Shown piece after piece: positions 32,960 to 40,483 of a DNA stretch of 64,000 nt. This stretch comes from an uncultured delta proteobacterium (GTDB taxonomy: Bacteria > Desulfobacterota > Desulfobacteria > Desulfobacterales > SG8-13). The stretch spans positions 510,938 to 574,937 of the forward strand of contig CAWKCK010000018.1 in the NCBI GenBank assembly GCA_963848135.1, given 5' to 3'. The notes under the pieces are model-generated. The model ran no database searches, was not told the DNA's origin, and saw nothing but the letters and a program-made list of their open reading frames with translations. Positions within the stretch are counted from its first letter, which is position 1. Each line of letters begins with the position of its first letter. The position numbers and the translations under genes are program-made.

Positions 32960-34861
32960 CTATTTCGTTTTATTTTGTTCCGCTTCGACCTGCTTCGCGG
33001 CGACAGCCGCTGCGGCACCGGCCTGAACAGCCTTTTTATTACGTTCAACGGCTTCCTCATCCGACGGCATGTAGACTGTTACATTGCGATGGGCGAATTC
33101 GATGCCATTATCCCTGAAAGCCTCTTGCATCATCCGGAATACCTCTCGCCGAATGACAAACTGCTCGCCCGGTATGGTTTTAAACTTCACTCGCATAATC
33201 ATGGCCGAATCATCCAATTCTCTGACCCCCTGGGATTTAACCTTACCTAGCATTACTGGGCCCATCTCTTTATCTTTCTTGATTTTTTTATTGATCTTCT
33301 TAATAATTTTTCTGACCCTATCGACGTCCGTGTCGTAACGCACGCGAAAATCAAGTTTGGAAATGATGTAGTCCCGGCTGTTATTGGTCACCGTGTCCAT
33401 GCTGCCGAAGGGGATCGTATGAACAGGGCCCCGAGGACTGCGCAGTCTCAACGAGCGCAGGGATATATGTTCTACCGTACCCTTCATGCCGCTAGTTTCG
33501 ATGTAGTCGCCGACCCGGAAAGCATCATCGATGAGGAAGAAGACGCCTGCGATAATATCTTTTACCAGGGTCTGGGCACCGAACCCAATGGCCAAGCCGA
33601 TCACGCCGGCACCTGCCAGAAGCGGAGCAATGTTTATCCCCATTGAGGAGAGCAGAAGCAGGATTACGATGGTGAACATCACGACCACCATCGTTTTGCG
33701 CAGCAAGAGGAGCAAGGTTTCACTCCGGGAGCCGCCGGCACCGCCTTCTTCCGCCTGACTATCTTGTTCCGGTAGGTCTTCCTCTATGTTTTTTTGGATG
33801 TGGGATTTCACAAACTCCCATAAAATTAAACCGACCAAAAAGAGTATGAAAATCCGCTGCAGGGTATTTTCGAGGAATATGAGCACCGATCCGGTAATAT
33901 TGATATGCTCGTCAAGAATATACTTTATCAGACTGACCATCAGCACGGTAAAAAGGATAACCAAAAGCCATCCGGTAGTTTTCTTTCCTGAAGAAAGCTC
34001 GGCAGTCCTTCGATACCACCACCGGACAAGCAGCCGAACAACCAGCAAGACAACAAGGGGCAGAACAGCCAGTGCGCACCACTGCCATAGAGTCTGATCA
34101 AGGTACGTCGCATTTGACCAGGCTGGCAGCCATTGGCTCCACTTGGGCGGCAACAGTCGGCCGGGATTGGTTACATAAAAATCAAAAAATTCACTGCTGA
34201 TGAGCGCATTCTGCTTGTAGGGATAGTCTTTTACTTTACCGTAGAATTCTTCAAGTCGAACGACCGTCTCAGGGGTAAAGAGAAACTCCCCTTCGCGGGG
34301 ACCTTCCTCAACCCGGTCAATGATAATATCAGTATTGGGGATTCGCCAGCGAATCAATTCCGCTATTTTCTCCATTTCTTCCTCAGCTTCGATGGCTTCG
34401 GCGTCTGGGATCTTTTCAAATGGGGGAAGGTCGATCCGGTCGAAAACCTCTTTGAGCATGATGGCGCCCTCGTAACCTGTATTCTTCTTCAGATTCGTCG
34501 GAACCTGGCTTAAATTCAAGCATTCGACGCCGCTTTCGAAAAATTCCTCTGCTTGTTTTACCATCTGCCGGACCGATTCTGAGGGAAAGTATCCGGGCGT
34601 TTTCAAGTTTTTTCGATGGGCCTTCATCAACATACTGTAAGCAAGGTTCATATTTTCGATAAAGCTTCTCAGCGTCTCCCGTGGACTGACCGTATTGGGT
34701 GGCTTGAGCAAAGCATTAGCGCTTCCAGAAGAATCATCATCCTCTGGGCGTGTTGATGTGGATTCTACCGAAGCGGCTTCTTGCGCAATTGCGATAGTCA
34801 CAACAAACGCCGCGATGAATAAAATTGTCGTGAATCGAAATATTGATTGGCTCAATTTCAT
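32960..34861 (-). CDS. Large MscS-family mechanosensitive channel
   Basis: LLAGAGVIGLAIGFGAQTLVKD, FRVGDYI, GTVEHI; signal peptide at MKLSQ. Confidence 0.88.
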   Translation of the reverse strand: MKLSQSIFRFTTILFIAAFVVTIAIAQEAASVESTSTRPEDDDSSGSANALLKPPNTVSPRETLRSFIENMNLAYSMLMKAHRKNLKTPGYFPSESVRQMVKQAEEFFESGVECLNLSQVPTNLKKNTGYEGAIMLKEVFDRIDLPPFEKIPDAEAIEAEEEMEKIAELIRWRIPNTDIIIDRVEEGPREGEFLFTPETVVRLEEFYGKVKDYPYKQNALISSEFFDFYVTNPGRLLPPKWSQWLPAWSNATYLDQTLWQWCALAVLPLVVLLVVRLLVRWWYRRTAELSSGKKTTGWLLVILFTVLMVSLIKYILDEHINITGSVLIFLENTLQRIFILFLVGLILWEFVKSHIQKNIEEDLPEQDSQAEEGGAGGSRSETLLLLLRKTMVVVMFTIVILLLLSSMGINIAPLLAGAGVIGLAIGFGAQTLVKDIIAGVFFLIDDAFRVGDYIETSGMKGTVEHISLRSLRLRSPRGPVHTIPFGSMDTVTNNSRDYIISKLDFRVRYDTDVDRVRKIIKKINKKIKKDKEMGPVMLGKVKSQGVRELDDSAMIMRVKFKTIPGEQFVIRREVFRMMQEAFRDNGIEFAHRNVTVYMPSDEEAVERNKKAVQAGAAAAVAAKQVEAEQNKTK

Positions 34862-35348
34862 AATATTAGTTCCTTTGAATCCTTCACACGATATGATCCG
34901 CCTATCTGATCTGACTTGGTCGGTACAAATATATTGCCAGAATTGATTATCTGTTACCCCAATTTCCTGCGTAATTTGTATTTTAGCCAACCCAAAACTC
35001 AAGGGATTAATGAAAGATTGATTCGCACTTTTTTGTGTTTACGGCAATTTTAGTGGCGACGAATAGATTATGGAAAAATTATATATAATGACTGAAGTTA
35101 TCAATCTTGTGAGAAATAAGATTAAGGTATTATAAATTGAGTTGAAAGACAAATACATCATTCGTGTATTTCAGATTCACAAATATACAGAATTTTACTT
35201 CATGAAAAACTGTGGGTTTCGTACCTGCTTCGAATCTTTAGGTGGACCCGAATAACTCAAGATTGGCGGATGTAATATTCATTTTGGGGAAATTGCAGAT
35301 TTGGGCATGATCGGGAGGACTTTCGGGGTCACACACAACCTATTGTTT

Positions 35349-35448
35349 CTTGCCACAGGTCAAACTATCCGTAATTACGCCAAATATCACGATATCGTCT
35401 GGCTATATTCAGGAAATCCGCCGAGTGATAGATGTTGGACCATAGCAG
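35349..35448. repeat. Repeated site F (complete, uninterrupted)
   Basis: CTTGCCA-N7-AACTATC..GATA-N6-GGCTAT..GATAG-N10-ATAGCAG. Confidence 0.75.
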
Positions 35449-35480
35449 CAGATTTGAGTTCTCACATTCGTTTGATACGG

Positions 35481-37707
35481 GTAAGTAGCGCGGAGAAGTC
35501 TCACCCCCACGCCCTCCAAGAACCGTACGTGACAGTCTCCCGTCATACGGCTCCTACTGTCCAGCCGACGGCCGATAGCCAAATTCCCAGGAAGCAATTA
35601 ATCTGGGGTCTCGGCGTGCAATGCAACCCAACCAATGGGTCGCTTTGAGCCAATGGCCTCTCAACCTCTTGTATTTCCGCATCGCCCAACGAACCAAGGC
35701 ATACTGAAGCTGGCGAAGGATGGGACGCATTGCTGATTTGTAGTATCTGCCATAGTAATTCAACCAACCCCTTATAACAGGATTGATTCGCCTGGCAACA
35801 TCCTCTAATGACGAGGAACTCCATAATTGCAGTTTCCAGCTCCTTATCGTAGCACTCATCGCCTTTAGCGCCGATTTGCTCACCGCTGGGTTAAAACCCA
35901 CCAAATAGTTTCGCCCTCTACAGTCATGGGGCCGAAAGCTATAGCCGAGAAAATTAAAACTCTCATGCTCATGGCTTCCAGGGCGTTTTGCATCCTTACA
36001 ATATACAATCTTCGTCTTCTCCGGATGCAATTGCAGCTTGCAGCGTGCCAGACGTCTCTCAATGACTCTCAGCATAACCCGCGCCTGAGCTTCCGTGTGA
36101 CAGTGGACAATAATATCATCCGCATATCTTGCAAATGGTGTACTCGGATGATTTACTCTCATCCACTCATCAAATGCGTGGTGAAGAAAAATGTTGGCCA
36201 GCAGAGGGCTGATAACACCCCCTTGCGGCGTGCCCTCCAACGTCTTGAACCATTTGTCGCCCTCCAGGACCCCGGCTCGCAGCCACTGCTTTATTAGCCG
36301 CAGTATTCGTGGGTCGGCAATCCTGCGTGCAACCATCCGCAGAAGCCACTCGTGGTCAACCGAGTCGAAAAATCTACGAACGTCTGCGTCGAGCACCCAG
36401 TTTATTTTGCGTTTAATTAGCGCTGCATTAAGCGACTGCAAAGCATGATGCGGGCTTCGCCCCGGCCTAAAACCATACGAAAAACCGAGAAAGTCAACCT
36501 CATAAATTGCGCTCAGAACCTCTGATACCGCTCCCTGGACAATCTTGTCTTCCAGTACCGGTATACCAATCGGTCGCAGAGCTCCATCTGCTTTGGGCAC
36601 ATAAGCCCTTCGCACTGGCCGAGGTCGGTAGCTTCCCGAATGGACCCGGTCGCATAACCTTTTAAGATTAGCTTCCAGATTTTCGCCGTACGCTTCCACC
36701 GTAACGCCATCGGCCCCGGCACTCGCATTCCGCCTTTGCCGGTTGTAGACTCTTCTAAGAGCCTCCACGTCGATGTGATGCATCAATGCTGTAAACCGGG
36801 TCTTGCGCGATTTCCTCGCCGCCTCGTTCACTCTGGCAAGATTGGCTGGCAAGGCTGCCCGACCCTGTGTTCGGACCTTCGCCTTCCTACCAGAGTTCCC
36901 CTCAGGCCAGGGCCTTCCCTCCGTACACCGCGTACTATTTTCCTTCGTTGACATCATCAGTACTACACCCCAGTCCGCCACCCCGCCTCAGCTCAGATCA
37001 AGGCTCCGGTCATCCCTTGCCCTGATCCCCCTACAGTGACCATCTATAGGACCCGACGGGGCTTCCTGGGTTCCTATGCCATCCTTTCGTACGTGATGTG
37101 GTCTCAGACCCCGATGGAGCAACATCGTCTCGCGTTAACGACGATGCATATGCTGCCTTCGACGCGTGGGACGGTCTCGGCCTCCACAATTAGTGTATTT
37201 CGTGGCTCAATAGCACACCCCGCACAAATGCTGTCTACGCTTCGAACGCCCTGTTACCAGTACGCTCGCAAGACTCGCTCCCGGCCCGCTCGCTAAGCTT
37301 TAGCCGGACGGGACTTTCACCCGCAAGATGTCACAAACTTCTCCCAGCGCACCCCACGTTCCGCACAAAAGCCTGGGCCAAGTTCATGCCATCTCTATGC
37401 CGGACGCCGCCCAGACAATAAACAGGCTCTCTCTGGGCTTATCCTGCAGGCCTCCAAGTACCCACAGTTTTGACGCCATCTCAGATATTTCGACACCTCA
37501 TCAATGGTTCGCTTGCACTCATCTCCTTGATCCGTACCGGACACGGTCTTTGGCCATGCCTTTCCCTTAACGCTCACCACAACGGCTCTTTACCGATGCA
37601 GCTTAAGGTGGTTTGAAGCCTGCTCCTGCAAGCCGACTCCGAGGGACCCTCCCTCATCTTCTGTGCAGTTACGCACACTTTATATTAAAAGTGCGCTCGT
37701 GGCGCAC
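35481..37707 (-). mobile_element. Group II intron locus with two nested 5' ends and one 3' end
   Basis: GTGCG starts at 37707 and 37352; domain V GAGCCGTATGAC.GGGAGAC.GTCACGTACGGTTC; domain VI ends GCTACTTAC near 35481. Confidence 0.88.
35554..36981 (-). CDS. ltrA: Group II intron reverse transcriptase/maturase, no endonuclease domain; start uncertain
   Basis: RPIGIP, SYGFRPGR, DADV..FFD, GTPQG, RYADD, FLG, domain X RGWLNYY. Confidence 0.92.
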   Translation of the reverse strand: MADWGVVLMMSTKENSTRCTEGRPWPEGNSGRKAKVRTQGRAALPANLARVNEAARKSRKTRFTALMHHIDVEALRRVYNRQRRNASAGADGVTVEAYGENLEANLKRLCDRVHSGSYRPRPVRRAYVPKADGALRPIGIPVLEDKIVQGAVSEVLSAIYEVDFLGFSYGFRPGRSPHHALQSLNAALIKRKINWVLDADVRRFFDSVDHEWLLRMVARRIADPRILRLIKQWLRAGVLEGDKWFKTLEGTPQGGVISPLLANIFLHHAFDEWMRVNHPSTPFARYADDIIVHCHTEAQARVMLRVIERRLARCKLQLHPEKTKIVYCKDAKRPGSHEHESFNFLGYSFRPHDCRGRNYLVGFNPAVSKSALKAMSATIRSWKLQLWSSSSLEDVARRINPVIRGWLNYYGRYYKSAMRPILRQLQYALVRWAMRKYKRLRGHWLKATHWLGCIARRDPRLIASWEFGYRPSAGQ

Positions 37708-37717
37708 TTGGAGACAT

Positions 37718-37776
37718 CAGTAACGCTTAGCATAAGTCGTGGCGGCATTTTGCCGTCGCCTCTAATGCTGTTGATT
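37718..37776 (-). other. Degenerate attC-like site (59 bp)
   Basis: Minus strand AATCAAC-AGCATTA..GGCGACGGCA-AAA-TGCCGCC..TTATGCT-AAGC-GTTACTG, just downstream of a small gene. Confidence 0.5.
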
Positions 37777-37800
37777 ATAATGAATTTCTATGACAGATTT

Positions 37801-38259
37801 CTATATTTTGATCAGATTCATAATGTCTTCATTCAAGGGAATATCCGCCATCGAATGTCCGTAATGCACATACCGAAGCATTCCAGACTTATCAATCAGC
37901 ATCTGGGCTGGCATTCTGCCCAACTTGAACAAATTGACCTCCTGCCCGTATAATTTTAAAATTTTATGTTTCGGATCAGGTAATCCGATAAATGGCAGGT
38001 CTTCCTTTTTCCAGTACTTCTGAAAAGATTCGGCATCCTCAGGTCCAATTACGACTATTTCTGTATCCAGTTTAAAAAAGCGCTGATAATCTTGACGCAA
38101 CTGCGCCATATGCTTGCGGCAGAATGGTCAGACAAATCCACGATTAAAAACTACCAGCACATTTTTCTGTCCGGCAAAATCTGAAGGTGAAACGTTGCTT
38201 CCATTAAAATCGGGTAAGGTAAACTCAGGAGCATGGGTATTTAGCTCAACTTTGGCCAT
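37801..38259 (-). CDS. Peroxiredoxin-like (AhpC/TSA) selenoprotein with UxxC
   Basis: MAKVELNTHAPEFTLPDFNG...NRGFV-TGA(38130-28)-PFCRKH is in frame with the 102-aa ORF; GGAG RBS; downstream hairpin. Confidence 0.85.
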
Positions 38260-38494
38260 GATTGGCTCCTTACTCTTAAATTTCTAATGTACCTTGGAAA
38301 ACCTGATTGGTGAAGATTCCTCTTTGGGTAAAATGCCTGTCGACTACAGATACATTGAGAGTAATTGAAAATCGTAGGATGGGTCAATAATCAAACCTGC
38401 TTGCCACTGTACGACATAAAAAGGTAATTGACTGAAAGTGTTACAGAGGTCATTATCTGCCTGTTTTTTCTGCTAAAAACGAAAGGAGGCAGTG

Positions 38495-39580
38495 ATGAAC
38501 CTCGAACACGTTTCCGCAGAAATCCAGACCGATCAACTCAAAAGGCATCGGTCCGGCAAGGACAAATCAATTCGTTCGTCCTCGGTCCGTTCCAATTTCG
38601 ATCGAAATCCCTTCACTTTCAATCCTCTTATTGACCGAATCCTACGCAAAATCACCGTGCAGGATCTCTTGGCTGCGGAGCATGTCGAGGCATATTTGCG
38701 CGATCAGCATCGACGCAATTGCCGACACAACACGATCCGATCCAACGGCGCCAACATTACCGGTTTTTTACGTTTTCTCAAAGACAGCGGCATCGATCAA
38801 CTGCAAGCCATCAACCGCGAGCACATCGCCGAATTCGTTGAACATGAGCAAGGCCGCGGGCTTTCACCCAATACGGTCAGCACTCAGTTGCGCTGCCTGT
38901 ATGCCTTTATCAACTTTTTGATCGATCGCGATGTGCTTCACCCGGATCTGCTCAAGCGCAAACTGCGCATTAAAGTTCCCGATGCCCTGCCGCGGGCCAT
39001 TGATCCGGATCATATCAAGCAGCTGTTGGCCGTAGTCAAAAAACCGCGTGATCGCGCCCTGGTATTGACATTGTTGCGAACCGGGATGCGCATCGGCGAG
39101 CTGCTCGGCACCAAAGTGGAAGATCTCAACCTGCGGGAAAATATTATACAAATCATAGAAGCACAAAAGAACCGGGTCGGACGCGTTGTCTATTTGAGCG
39201 ATGATGCCCGAAGCGCTCTAATAAAATGGCTGAACACCAGGAGAAGACAAAGCGGGTTCATCTTCTACGGCAACTGCGGGCGAGCCCTGGGTTATGCGGC
39301 TGCCCGCCTAATCTTCAACGCCTATCTGCAAAAATCCGGACTGGCCCACAAGGGATATACCCTGCACTGCCTGCGGCACACCTTCGCCACAGAGCTGCTC
39401 AACGCCGGTATGCCGCTGCAGTGTTTGCAGGAGCTTCTCGGGCACAGCTGCATCGAAATGACCCGCCGCTATGCCCGGCTGACCGACAACACGCGCCGGG
39501 AACAATACTACAAAGCCATGGCCATCGTCGAAAAGGGAGAACTCCATGGACATTACCAACTCGATTATCAACTACCGTAG
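38495..39580 (+). CDS. Tyrosine recombinase A (intact)
   Basis: TGMRIGE, HCLRHTFAT, LLGH, RRY. Confidence 0.93.
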   Translation: MNLEHVSAEIQTDQLKRHRSGKDKSIRSSSVRSNFDRNPFTFNPLIDRILRKITVQDLLAAEHVEAYLRDQHRRNCRHNTIRSNGANITGFLRFLKDSGIDQLQAINREHIAEFVEHEQGRGLSPNTVSTQLRCLYAFINFLIDRDVLHPDLLKRKLRIKVPDALPRAIDPDHIKQLLAVVKKPRDRALVLTLLRTGMRIGELLGTKVEDLNLRENIIQIIEAQKNRVGRVVYLSDDARSALIKWLNTRRRQSGFIFYGNCGRALGYAAARLIFNAYLQKSGLAHKGYTLHCLRHTFATELLNAGMPLQCLQELLGHSCIEMTRRYARLTDNTRREQYYKAMAIVEKGELHGHYQLDYQLP

Positions 39581-40483
39581 GTTCTTAAAGCGACGCAATT
39601 ACTCCGCCCATACGCTGCGAACCTATATGAGCACCCTGAAGCAGTTTGTCGTCTGGCTGGATATGCCCGTGGAGGCTGTCACCCACAAGAAACTATTGGG
39701 CTTCATCGATTATCTGCGCAGCAAGCGTTTGAAACCCAAGACCGTCAATTGCTACCTGGACAGCATCCGCGGCTTTTATGATTACCTGATCAACGAAGAG
39801 GAGGTTGTAATGAGCAATCCGGTCAAGCGCGGGTATACCTTAAGGCTCTCCAGGCCACTGCCGCGCTACCTGCGGGATGAAGAGATCTCTGCGCTCTTTG
39901 CGGTCATCGACAATCCCAGAGACCGGGCCATCTTCAAGCTGATGCTGCGCTGCGGACTCCGGGTCGAAGAGGTAACCAATCTCACTCTGAGTGCCTTGGA
40001 CCTGCCGCGGTATCAAGTGTTTGTCTACCAGGGCAAGGGGCTAAAAGACCGTGTGGTCTATCTGAGCAAGGACGCATACACCGCACTTGGCTGCTTACCT
40101 TAAAGCCAGACCCCACTCGCGGGTCAAAAAGCTCTTCCTGGTGGAAAAGGGCCGCTTTAGAGGCAAACCGCTCAAGGCCCGCGGCATCCAGCACCGCATG
40201 CAGCTCTATGCCAAGCAAAGCAGGGCTGAGAGTCTGTTGCCATCAACTTCGCCATACGATGGCCACGCAGATGCTCAACGCCGATGCCGACCTGGTTACC
40301 ATCCAGGATCTGCTCGGCCACACGCGCATAAAAACCACGCAGCGGTATTGTCGGGTCTCCAACCCGAAGGTTCGACGTGATTACTATAGCGCCATGAACA
40401 AGGTGCTTCAACGCCACACCGGTGACGGTGAAAAAACTCTTGACAAAGAGCAAAAACCAATACATTTAATGGGCTATAACTAA
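39546..40483 (+). pseudogene. Tyrosine recombinase B with two +1 frameshifts (near 40088 and 40217)
   Basis: CGLRVEE in frame 1, AAYLKARP in frame 2, HQLRHTMAT/LLGH/QRY in frame 3. Confidence 0.85.

Follow-up and report, generated by a model that had tools for sequence, protein, structure and literature searches.

A probable collapsed twintron that joins class E-type and class D-type group II intron parts in an uncultured delta proteobacterium

The DNA analyzed here, hereafter called the window, is a 64,000-nucleotide (nt) stretch of contig 18 (C18:510938-574937) in an 18-contig, 6.03-Mb assembly of an uncultured delta proteobacterium. It contains a single 2228-nt group II intron unit, at 37707-35480 on the minus strand, which is made up of parts of two different introns. 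We conclude that this element is a deletion derivative of a twintron, that is, of two nested introns. In the reading that we favor, to which we give a probability of roughly 85%, a class E-type intron lay within a class D-type intron, ~1.53 kb was lost at the codons for the GTPQG motif of their two reverse transcriptase (RT) genes, and the pair collapsed into one hybrid element. Positions are those of the window, read on the minus strand throughout, except for those with the prefix H, which run along the element from H1 (37707) to H2228 (35480).

The element has two intron 5' ends, both with a GTGCG start. The first, GTGCGCCACG, begins at 37707, and the second, GTGCGCTGGG, begins at 37352 (H356), right behind ...CGGAACGTGGG. 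Each is followed by a match to a different Rfam model of domain I: RF01999 (D1D4-2) at 37655-37536, with 114.8 bits, and RF02005 (D1D4-6) at 37317-37099, with 173.6 bits. Domains V and VI (DV/DVI) were found only once, as a match to RF00029 at 35555-35480 (57.1 bits), and their fold includes GAGCC...GGTTC and CTAC. A permissive Rfam scan of 33500-39500 returned no intron domain beyond these three matches. This DV/DVI has the 76-nt geometry and the GAGA DV loop of the D-type copies, whereas E-type copies have a DV/DVI of 70 to 73 nt with a GAAA loop. An intact twintron would carry two DV/DVI sets and a complete outer intron; the element has one DV/DVI and one open reading frame (ORF).

At the nucleotide level, the element is a mosaic. 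Three other introns of the same genome, all class D-type and 99.9 to 100% identical to each other (C18:591054-592912 and C18:452912-454339 on the minus strand and C1:220952-222811 on the plus strand), match H1-355 (82%) and H1472-2228 (79%) only, and their own 745 nt are replaced in the element by 1116 nt seen nowhere else in the genome. The copy at C18:452912-454339 has a 431-nt internal deletion that removes the RT N terminus. A much closer relative of the outer parts occurs in a genome of the same genus (G006), where an uninterrupted 1856-nt outer intron lies at another locus. This intron is 99% identical to H1-355 (over its nt 1-354) and 98% identical to H1472-2228, with 745 nt of its own between these segments, and in it GGAACGTGGG and AACCTGTCG are contiguous. 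An intact twintron is present at a locus of a metagenome-assembled genome (L075); it has both RT genes and both DV/DVI, and its inner intron is inserted at precisely the nucleotide seen in the element. Its order is the outer 5' end, RF01999, and the inner intron with RF02005, a 472-aa-type RT, and the inner DV/DVI, after which the outer intron resumes with AACCTGTCG and continues with a 418-aa RT and the outer DV/DVI. H1-1520 aligns to L075 2276-3794 at 88.6% identity. At two further loci (L117 and L118), an intact twintron uses this insertion site within another outer intron. Because the Rfam scores of the element are near those of intact relatives (175.0 bits for RF02005 in L075 and 50.5 bits for RF00029 in G006), its RNA parts appear equally well preserved.

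The sequences missing from the element were not found elsewhere in its genome. Neither the inner-type C-half nor the outer-parent middle segment had a match in the 6.03-Mb assembly by tblastn and blastn, and the genome has no other copy of this outer subtype or of the inner type. When 61 relatives were searched by blastn with the element for an inner-type parent, the middle part was matched only weakly (67% in G013 and 83% over 53 nt in G010).

The 475-aa product of the ORF matches Pfam RVT_1 (2.4e-42) and GIIM (3.3e-17) as well as the NCBIfam group II RT/maturase model TIGR04416 (392.5 bits, against a cut-off of 300). The frame is open, and its C-terminal part runs from GTPQGG through YADD and domain X to a class D-like tail. 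It ends 25 residues past the GIIM match with no other Pfam domain and so is without a DNA-binding/endonuclease (D/En) domain. For a half-by-half comparison, we split the protein at GTPQGG (residue 250). A homologue search covered 5.8 billion clustered proteins, of which only the 8000 candidates sharing the most words were scored, and 119 non-self matches were listed. Among these, 86 were related in the C-half only (N-half, 32 to 39%; C-half, 75 to 96% identity), 31 were related in the N-half only (84 to 96% and 28 to 41%, respectively), and two (P0055 and P0101) were intermediate; none of the 119 reached at least 70% identity in both halves, a split far beyond what chance would give. The best relatives of the two halves are also different proteins. 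The N-half is 96% identical to P0003, and kin at this level have C-halves at 28 to 31%; the C-half is 99% identical to the outer RT of G006, the N-half of which is 32% identical to that of the hybrid.

Separate phylogenies of the two halves, which the earlier note on this DNA had proposed as a check, gave the same picture. These were maximum-likelihood trees of 31 rows, built by a "quick" method with support from the Shimodaira-Hasegawa-like approximate likelihood ratio test (SH-aLRT) only; L035 and L104, with truncated translations, were left out of an initial 33. In the N-half tree the hybrid is sister to P0003, within the inner (E-type) clade, and in the C-half tree it is sister to the outer RT of G006, within the outer (D-type) clade; the branch dividing the inner and outer types has an SH-aLRT value of 100 in both. 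The codons of the C-half differ from those of G006 by 5 synonymous and 2 nonsynonymous changes, which are too few for a dS/dN comparison and not assignable to the time after the fusion. The earlier note, made from the letters alone, had described two intron 5' ends with only one ORF and one DV/DVI and had read them as a twintron with its middle deleted. The two domain I models, the uninterrupted outer intron of G006, the intact twintron L075, and the separate half trees all bear this out.

The class labels used here rest on comparison with reference introns and not on a tree with all classes. Over residues 2-472, the inner-type protein P0003 shows 62% identity to the disrupted RT encoded on the Sinorhizobium meliloti GR4 plasmid pRmeGR4b, and the pRmeGR4b locus matches RF02005, as the inner part does. 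The N-half of the hybrid is 69% identical to the pRmeGR4b fragment and belongs to the same clade, in a tree with no classes beyond the D and E types. According to PMC5894124, pRmeGR4b carries a disrupted class E intron, S.me.I4, with which we equate the plasmid ORF by the plasmid name and its disrupted state, not by accession. The outer type, for its part, is ~60% identical to multicopy 419-aa intron-encoded proteins (IEPs) of S. meliloti plasmids, the locus of which matches RF01999, as the outer part does. The C-half is 54% identical to the 419-aa S. meliloti IEP and falls in the same clade, again in a tree of D and E types only. To judge from host, copy number, and length only, this reference is presumably RmInt1 or RmInt2. 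PMC4615759 lists RmInt1, RmInt2, and Sr.md.I1 as class D, with 419 aa and the tail motif LX3AX3PXLF[V/A]HW. The hybrid tail, LGCIARRDPRLIASW, keeps six of the eight specified positions (L, A, P, L, A, and W), with F changed to I and H to S; the relatives L075 outer and P0101 carry LFAHW. On these comparisons, an E-like N-half and a D-like C-half and 3' RNA, which the earlier note had proposed from family signatures, are supported indirectly.

Two internal junctions define the mosaic. The first, between 37353 and 37352, is an ordinary intron insertion. The second lies in the GTPQG codons, in the 18-nt interval AGGGCACGCCGCAAGGGG (36236-36219), and thus within the range of about 36200-36240 given for the switch in the earlier note. 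The element follows the inner type to 36237, its last inner-specific base. From 36236 onward it is identical to the outer intron of G006, and its first outer-specific base is at 36218. Ten nt, CCGCAAGGGG, are common to the element, the outer intron of G006, and the inner intron of L075. By the parent-like copies, the missing sequence amounts to 745 + 787 nt, or ~1.53 kb. As the deletion starts and stops within the same codons of homologous genes (GTPQG, RT motif 4), the frame stays open. A microhomology of 10 to 18 nt points to slippage or RT template switching and not to classical, RecA-type homologous recombination. The recombination between the inner and outer RT genes that was first suggested was therefore more likely one of these two.

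The sequences show the mosaic, both of its junctions, the outer boundaries, and that the parents exist; the order of events and the mechanism that follow are our inference. A class E-type intron would have retrohomed into a conserved domain I site of a class D-type intron (after ...GGAACGTGGG), giving a twintron. About 1.53 kb would then have been lost between the two copies of the sequence coding for RT motif 4 (GTPQG). This loss would have removed the RT C-half, DV, and DVI that form the 3' half of the inner intron and, from the outer intron, the rest of domain I (DI), DII, DIII, DIVa, and the RT N-half. The product consists of the 355-nt outer 5' remnant, a complete E-type DI-DIII, the hybrid RT, and the D-type DV/DVI; in the RT itself, the fingers and palm (RT0-4) are E-type, and RT5-7, the thumb/X, and the C-tail are D-type. 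The deletion was probably mediated by the microhomology, either through DNA slippage or illegitimate recombination in situ or through an RT template jump, with deletion at the DNA level being marginally more likely. The element at this locus is most likely a recent, nonpropagating relic.

The outer boundaries are set by a paralogous site elsewhere in the genome that is empty, with both flanks joined directly (between C17:1233803 and C17:1233804). The two flanks are 95% and 100% identical to C17:1233711-1233803 and C17:1233804-1233883, respectively, and over longer distances, compared with C17:1233104-1233937, the identity is 99.0% for 700 nt upstream and 99.3% for 134 nt downstream. Since the flanks are contiguous in C17, 37707-35480 is an insertion into one copy of a recent duplication. 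A putative outer exon-binding site 1 (EBS1), TTGGAGG at 37457-37451, is complementary to TCTCCAA in the 5' flank (37714-37708) and also to CCTCCAA in the flank of the G006 intron, at a different locus. A putative inner EBS1, CCCACG at 37170-37165, faces an intron-binding site 1 (IBS1), CGTGGG at 37358-37353, at the outer DI site. Both EBS1 candidates were assigned from complementarity. The parts of the element and its flanks are collected in Table 1.

Table 1. Parts of the hybrid element, its flanks, and the target site of its inner-type intron
Feature	Window positions	Strand	Remarks
Outer class D-type 5' remnant, 355 nt	37353..37707	-	GTGCG 5' end, most of domain I; RF01999
Inner class E-type 5' RNA, DI-DIII	36982..37352	-	5' end GTGCGCTGGG; RF02005
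Hybrid RT/maturase ORF, 475 aa	35554..36981	-	Residues 1-249 inner, 250-475 outer
Crossover interval AGGGCACGCCGCAAGGGG	36219..36236	-	Codes for (E)GTPQG(G), RT motif 4
Outer class D-type DV + DVI	35480..35555	-	3' end ...CTACTTACC; RF00029
5' flank (target site)	37708..37800	-	Downstream of 5'-truncated AhpC/TSA ORF
3' flank, 134 nt, common to empty paralogous site	35346..35479	-	99.3% to C17:1233804-1233937
Class D DI target site of inner-type intron			...TTGTGCGGAACGTGGG before the insertion point, AACCTG... after it

Some observations weigh against the favored reading. The junction rests on one assembly: in a search for sequencing runs, the best run contained 0.41 of the sampled words, and in four environmental runs no contig bridged 36236 with at least 31 letters on each side. 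In the contigs of those runs, intact inner introns continue into their own C-half at 36206, an outer-type contig ends exactly at 36236, and an outer-type DI is uninterrupted at 37353. These contigs fit a singleton and provide no independent support for the junction, and gaps in the coverage by these runs carry no meaning. In addition, the nearest inner-intron DNA among the sequences compared, that of L075, is 88.6% identical, and the microhomology was measured on parent-like copies, not on the true parents. Finally, the last ~47 nt (DV 3' strand and DVI; 35480-35526, H2182-2221) show 10 differences from G006 and, by an eye-count, ~3 from the class D-type copies resident in this genome. This 3' patch points to at least one further exchange or local divergence in the history of the element; it is possible that it is a small gene-conversion patch, or that the divergence is local to G006.

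It is also possible, although we give this less than an even chance, that the hybrid was already made during retrohoming. On reaching the GTPQG codons of the outer RT gene, an RT copying the twintron RNA from the outer 3' end would have jumped ~1.5 kb upstream within that template, landing on the homologous codons of the inner intron, which was still unspliced. Copying would have finished at the outer 5' end, and the collapsed form would have been inserted directly into the site. Short homology of the kind seen here, 10 to 18 nt at the junction, is typical of copy-choice jumps by RTs, and the site fits the outer intron EBS1. The empty paralogue is 99% identical, so the insertion is recent, and there is no sign of a full twintron at this locus and no full twintron, inner-type copy, or outer-subtype copy elsewhere in the genome. 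However, the donor twintron that such a jump calls for is likewise not seen in this genome, the sequence does not separate a cDNA jump from a DNA deletion, and deletion in situ needs no further assumption.

The hybrid of the window may not be the only protein of this kind, as the sequences of P0055 and P0101 are also mosaics that switch at GTPQG. Over 1183 nt, the locus of P0101 (L115) has 89% identity to an E-like intron (L167), and from the motif onward it has 87% identity to a D-type intron (L120) over 763 nt; a D-type 5' remnant is absent upstream, as is an E-type C-half downstream. The C-half of P0101 is 86 to 90% identical to 415-aa D-type proteins, whose N-halves are at 36 to 38%. In P0055, an N-half 88% identical to a 522-aa family is joined to a C-half 91% identical to a 419-aa family, and P0298 and P0126 show a similar pairing, with a class D-like C-half and other N-half donors. 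In each of P0101, P0055, and P0298, the two halves have separate relatives, at 84 to 91% identity. We also considered L115 and L116 as two independent insertions, but they are the same single 4872-nt sequence and give no evidence of two sites.

Among 80 loci retrieved with P0101, 59 have a plain D-type intron, 11 have a plain E-like intron, 2 have the P0101 hybrid (L115/L116, one sequence), 2 are E-in-D twintrons, and 6 have an E-like RT gene interrupted by a D-type intron. Inspection by eye places many of the 59 "plain" D-type loci as well between N-half and C-half fragments of another RT gene (e.g., L134, L135, and L177). On the metagenome contigs L186 to L189, L122, and L124, a class D-type intron lies inside another group II RT gene, with the host N-half upstream and the C-half downstream. 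In L186 it lies ~60 nt past the GTPQG codons of the host RT, a nesting reversed with respect to the precursor of the window element. Both nestings place the E-type motif upstream of the D-type motif, which would explain the class D-like C-half in all of the mosaics. One might then propose that the collapse of nested group II introns at RT motif 4 codons is a recurrent natural route of inter-class module exchange, with DI-DIII and the RT fingers/palm taken from one class, the thumb/C-tail and DV/DVI taken from another, and some products mobile. We regard this as a tentative idea and somewhat improbable. The mosaics P0101/L115, P0055, P0298, and P0126 come from short metagenome contigs, and an assembly chimera would give the same picture, the L115 boundaries included. 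If the proposal is true, viable hybrids would breach the strict rule of ribozyme-IEP coevolution, and the window element would be a fresh example with the outer remnant still attached.

Several other features of these loci deserve mention in their own right. In L123, L127, L147, and L156, the D-type intron is preceded by an RF02001-type domain I. In an E-like sublineage (L115 1468; L167, L186, L154, L155, and L163), the conserved block starts with (G)GGGNC...CGAAAGCGCCGGGATAAACCGG, the flanks upstream of it are unrelated, and the 5' boundary shows no canonical GUGYG. Group II introns are also nested in L095 (Inquilinus limosus), with two RF02005 matches in tandem at 2365-2582 and 2660-2879, 78 nt apart, and in L114 (S. 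meliloti plasmid pMl3), with two complete class D-type introns head to tail and RT fragments on both sides.

Could the hybrid of the window itself still work? A functional element would splice from 37352 to 35480, aided by the chimeric RT, and would retrohome into class D-type introns. Because the outer ribozyme has lost J2/3, DII, and DIII, only the inner 5' splice site (37352) could act, together with the D-type DV/DVI and a 3' site at 35480. Several features speak for this: the ORF is open, with YADD and all of the Pfam and NCBIfam domains; the RNA domains for one ribozyme are all present, with scores like those of intact relatives; and introns of both classes end in C, with a similar CUAC-type DVI. 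The metagenome N/C mosaics also switch at the same motif, and L115 has an E-type 5' boundary, a D-type 3' end, and no outer remnants, but they come from short contigs, in which the same look would arise if an assembler had joined two introns at the motif. We nevertheless consider a working element unlikely. It is present in a single copy in its genome, and a junction probe had no match across the junction in 401 genomes of the class; nor did such a match occur in the 61 relatives or among the 119 matches listed from the protein search. The three resident class D-type copies, which have a near-cognate target (TTGTATGGAACGTGGG followed by AACCTG), are uninterrupted at it. Moreover, the DV loop is GAGA where an E-type DI normally meets GAAA, and the first base of the 3' exon is C, not the native A of the inner intron.

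An assembly collapse, in which the genome would hold the full twintron and the assembler skipped 1.5 kb between similar motifs, is very improbable. Its appeal is that the junction falls within the most conserved stretch of both genes. However, the shared stretch is at most 18 nt, which is below usual assembly k-mers and far below long reads. The same assembly resolves three 1.86-kb introns (99.9 to 100% identical) and 1.3-kb repeats in contigs of up to 1.4 Mb, and this resolution of close repeats inside long contigs suggests that long reads were used. The assembly contains no orphan inner C-half or outer middle piece, and the C17 paralogue indicates that the two flanks belong together. Finally, a nonchimeric RT from one lineage intermediate between classes D and E, a thought invited by their reported placement as sister clades in RT-domain trees (PMC3552965) and by P0055 and P0101, which at first seemed intermediate, carries practically no weight, as N-half kin at 96% have C-halves at 28 to 31%, the C-half kin at 99% has an N-half at 32%, and P0055 and P0101 are themselves mosaics, the halves of which have their own relatives at 88 to 91%.

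The surroundings of the element (37708-39707 and 35346-35479) are a patchwork of repeats. A 1.3-kb segment with an Xer-like tyrosine recombinase gene (38492-39580) has 98.6% identical copies on C17 and C5, and the 834 bp around the insertion site, including a truncated AhpC/TSA ORF, are duplicated at 99% on C17 without the intron. This ORF (38109-37801, minus strand) covers only positions 45-124 of the Pfam AhpC-TSA profile. Past the AhpC/TSA fragment, at 37745-37764 and 37 nt upstream of the insertion site, is a GC-rich, hairpin-like sequence, GGCGACGGCAAAATGCCGCC. All three resident class D-type copies, for their part, directly follow a conserved ~33-nt upstream sequence (...ATAAGGTCTGACCGGCTCACGCTTGCTGCTA). 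The tyrosine recombinase and the repeated flanks led us to consider an attC-targeting class C intron of an integron, which we dropped. The recombinase looks Xer-like, with NCBIfam scores of 77.7 against a cut-off of 265 and 48.4 against 435 for an integron integrase, and the intron RNA and IEP fit the D-type.

As a natural element, this hybrid joins two classes both in protein (between RT4 and RT5) and in RNA (DI-DIII versus DV/DVI), with parents identifiable at 96 to 99% and an intact precursor form in a relative. It provides a ready test of RT-ribozyme modularity: does an E-type DI-DIII act with a D-type DV/DVI, and does the chimeric RT serve as a maturase? It also illustrates one concrete path of twintron decay or innovation. 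If such hybrids work, class phylogenies drawn from single domains would be blurred, and chimeric targetron-type designs would be suggested; if they do not, the element is a dated snapshot of twintron decay. Among the papers listed by full-text literature searches, with subscription journals outside their coverage, none presents a natural inter-class hybrid of RT and ribozyme in its title or in the opening of its abstract. Reconstructions of group II history, according to PMC4424553, assume that RT class and ribozyme class coevolved without exchange.

Twintrons, the homing of introns into introns, and the loss of nested copies by recombination are described in PMC2882425 and PMC4424553. The twintrons of Thermosynechococcus elongatus (TeI3 in TeI4) and the nested introns of Methanosarcina acetivorans resemble the present case in homing into a conserved intron site and in having intergenic sites that are costless to the host. 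The present case differs from them in that the two introns are of different classes, and in that a deletion between two RT genes, at a motif homology of 10 to 18 nt, would have given an open hybrid gene and a composite ribozyme; no single parental intron was restored. The class D introns of Sinorhizobium (RmInt1, RmInt2, and Sr.md.I1) are IIB3 and endonuclease minus (PMC4615759 and PMC5894124). The hybrid likewise lacks an endonuclease domain, and its outer parts share D1D4-2 with the intron of the 419-aa S. meliloti IEP, but of a D-type intron the element retains no more than the first 355 nt and the last 757 nt, and its tail motif has the two changes noted above. Class E is represented in PMC5894124 by S.me.I4 on pRmeGR4b. 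The inner part shares D1D4-6 with the pRmeGR4b locus, and the N-half clusters with the plasmid fragment, but only the class E-type 5' RNA and the first 249 codons are present here.

Copy-choice, or template-switch, recombinants are known in retroviruses and other retroelements. They likewise have an in-frame hybrid polymerase gene joined at short homology between two templates. Here, by contrast, both templates would lie on one RNA, and a deletion at the DNA level explains the product equally well.

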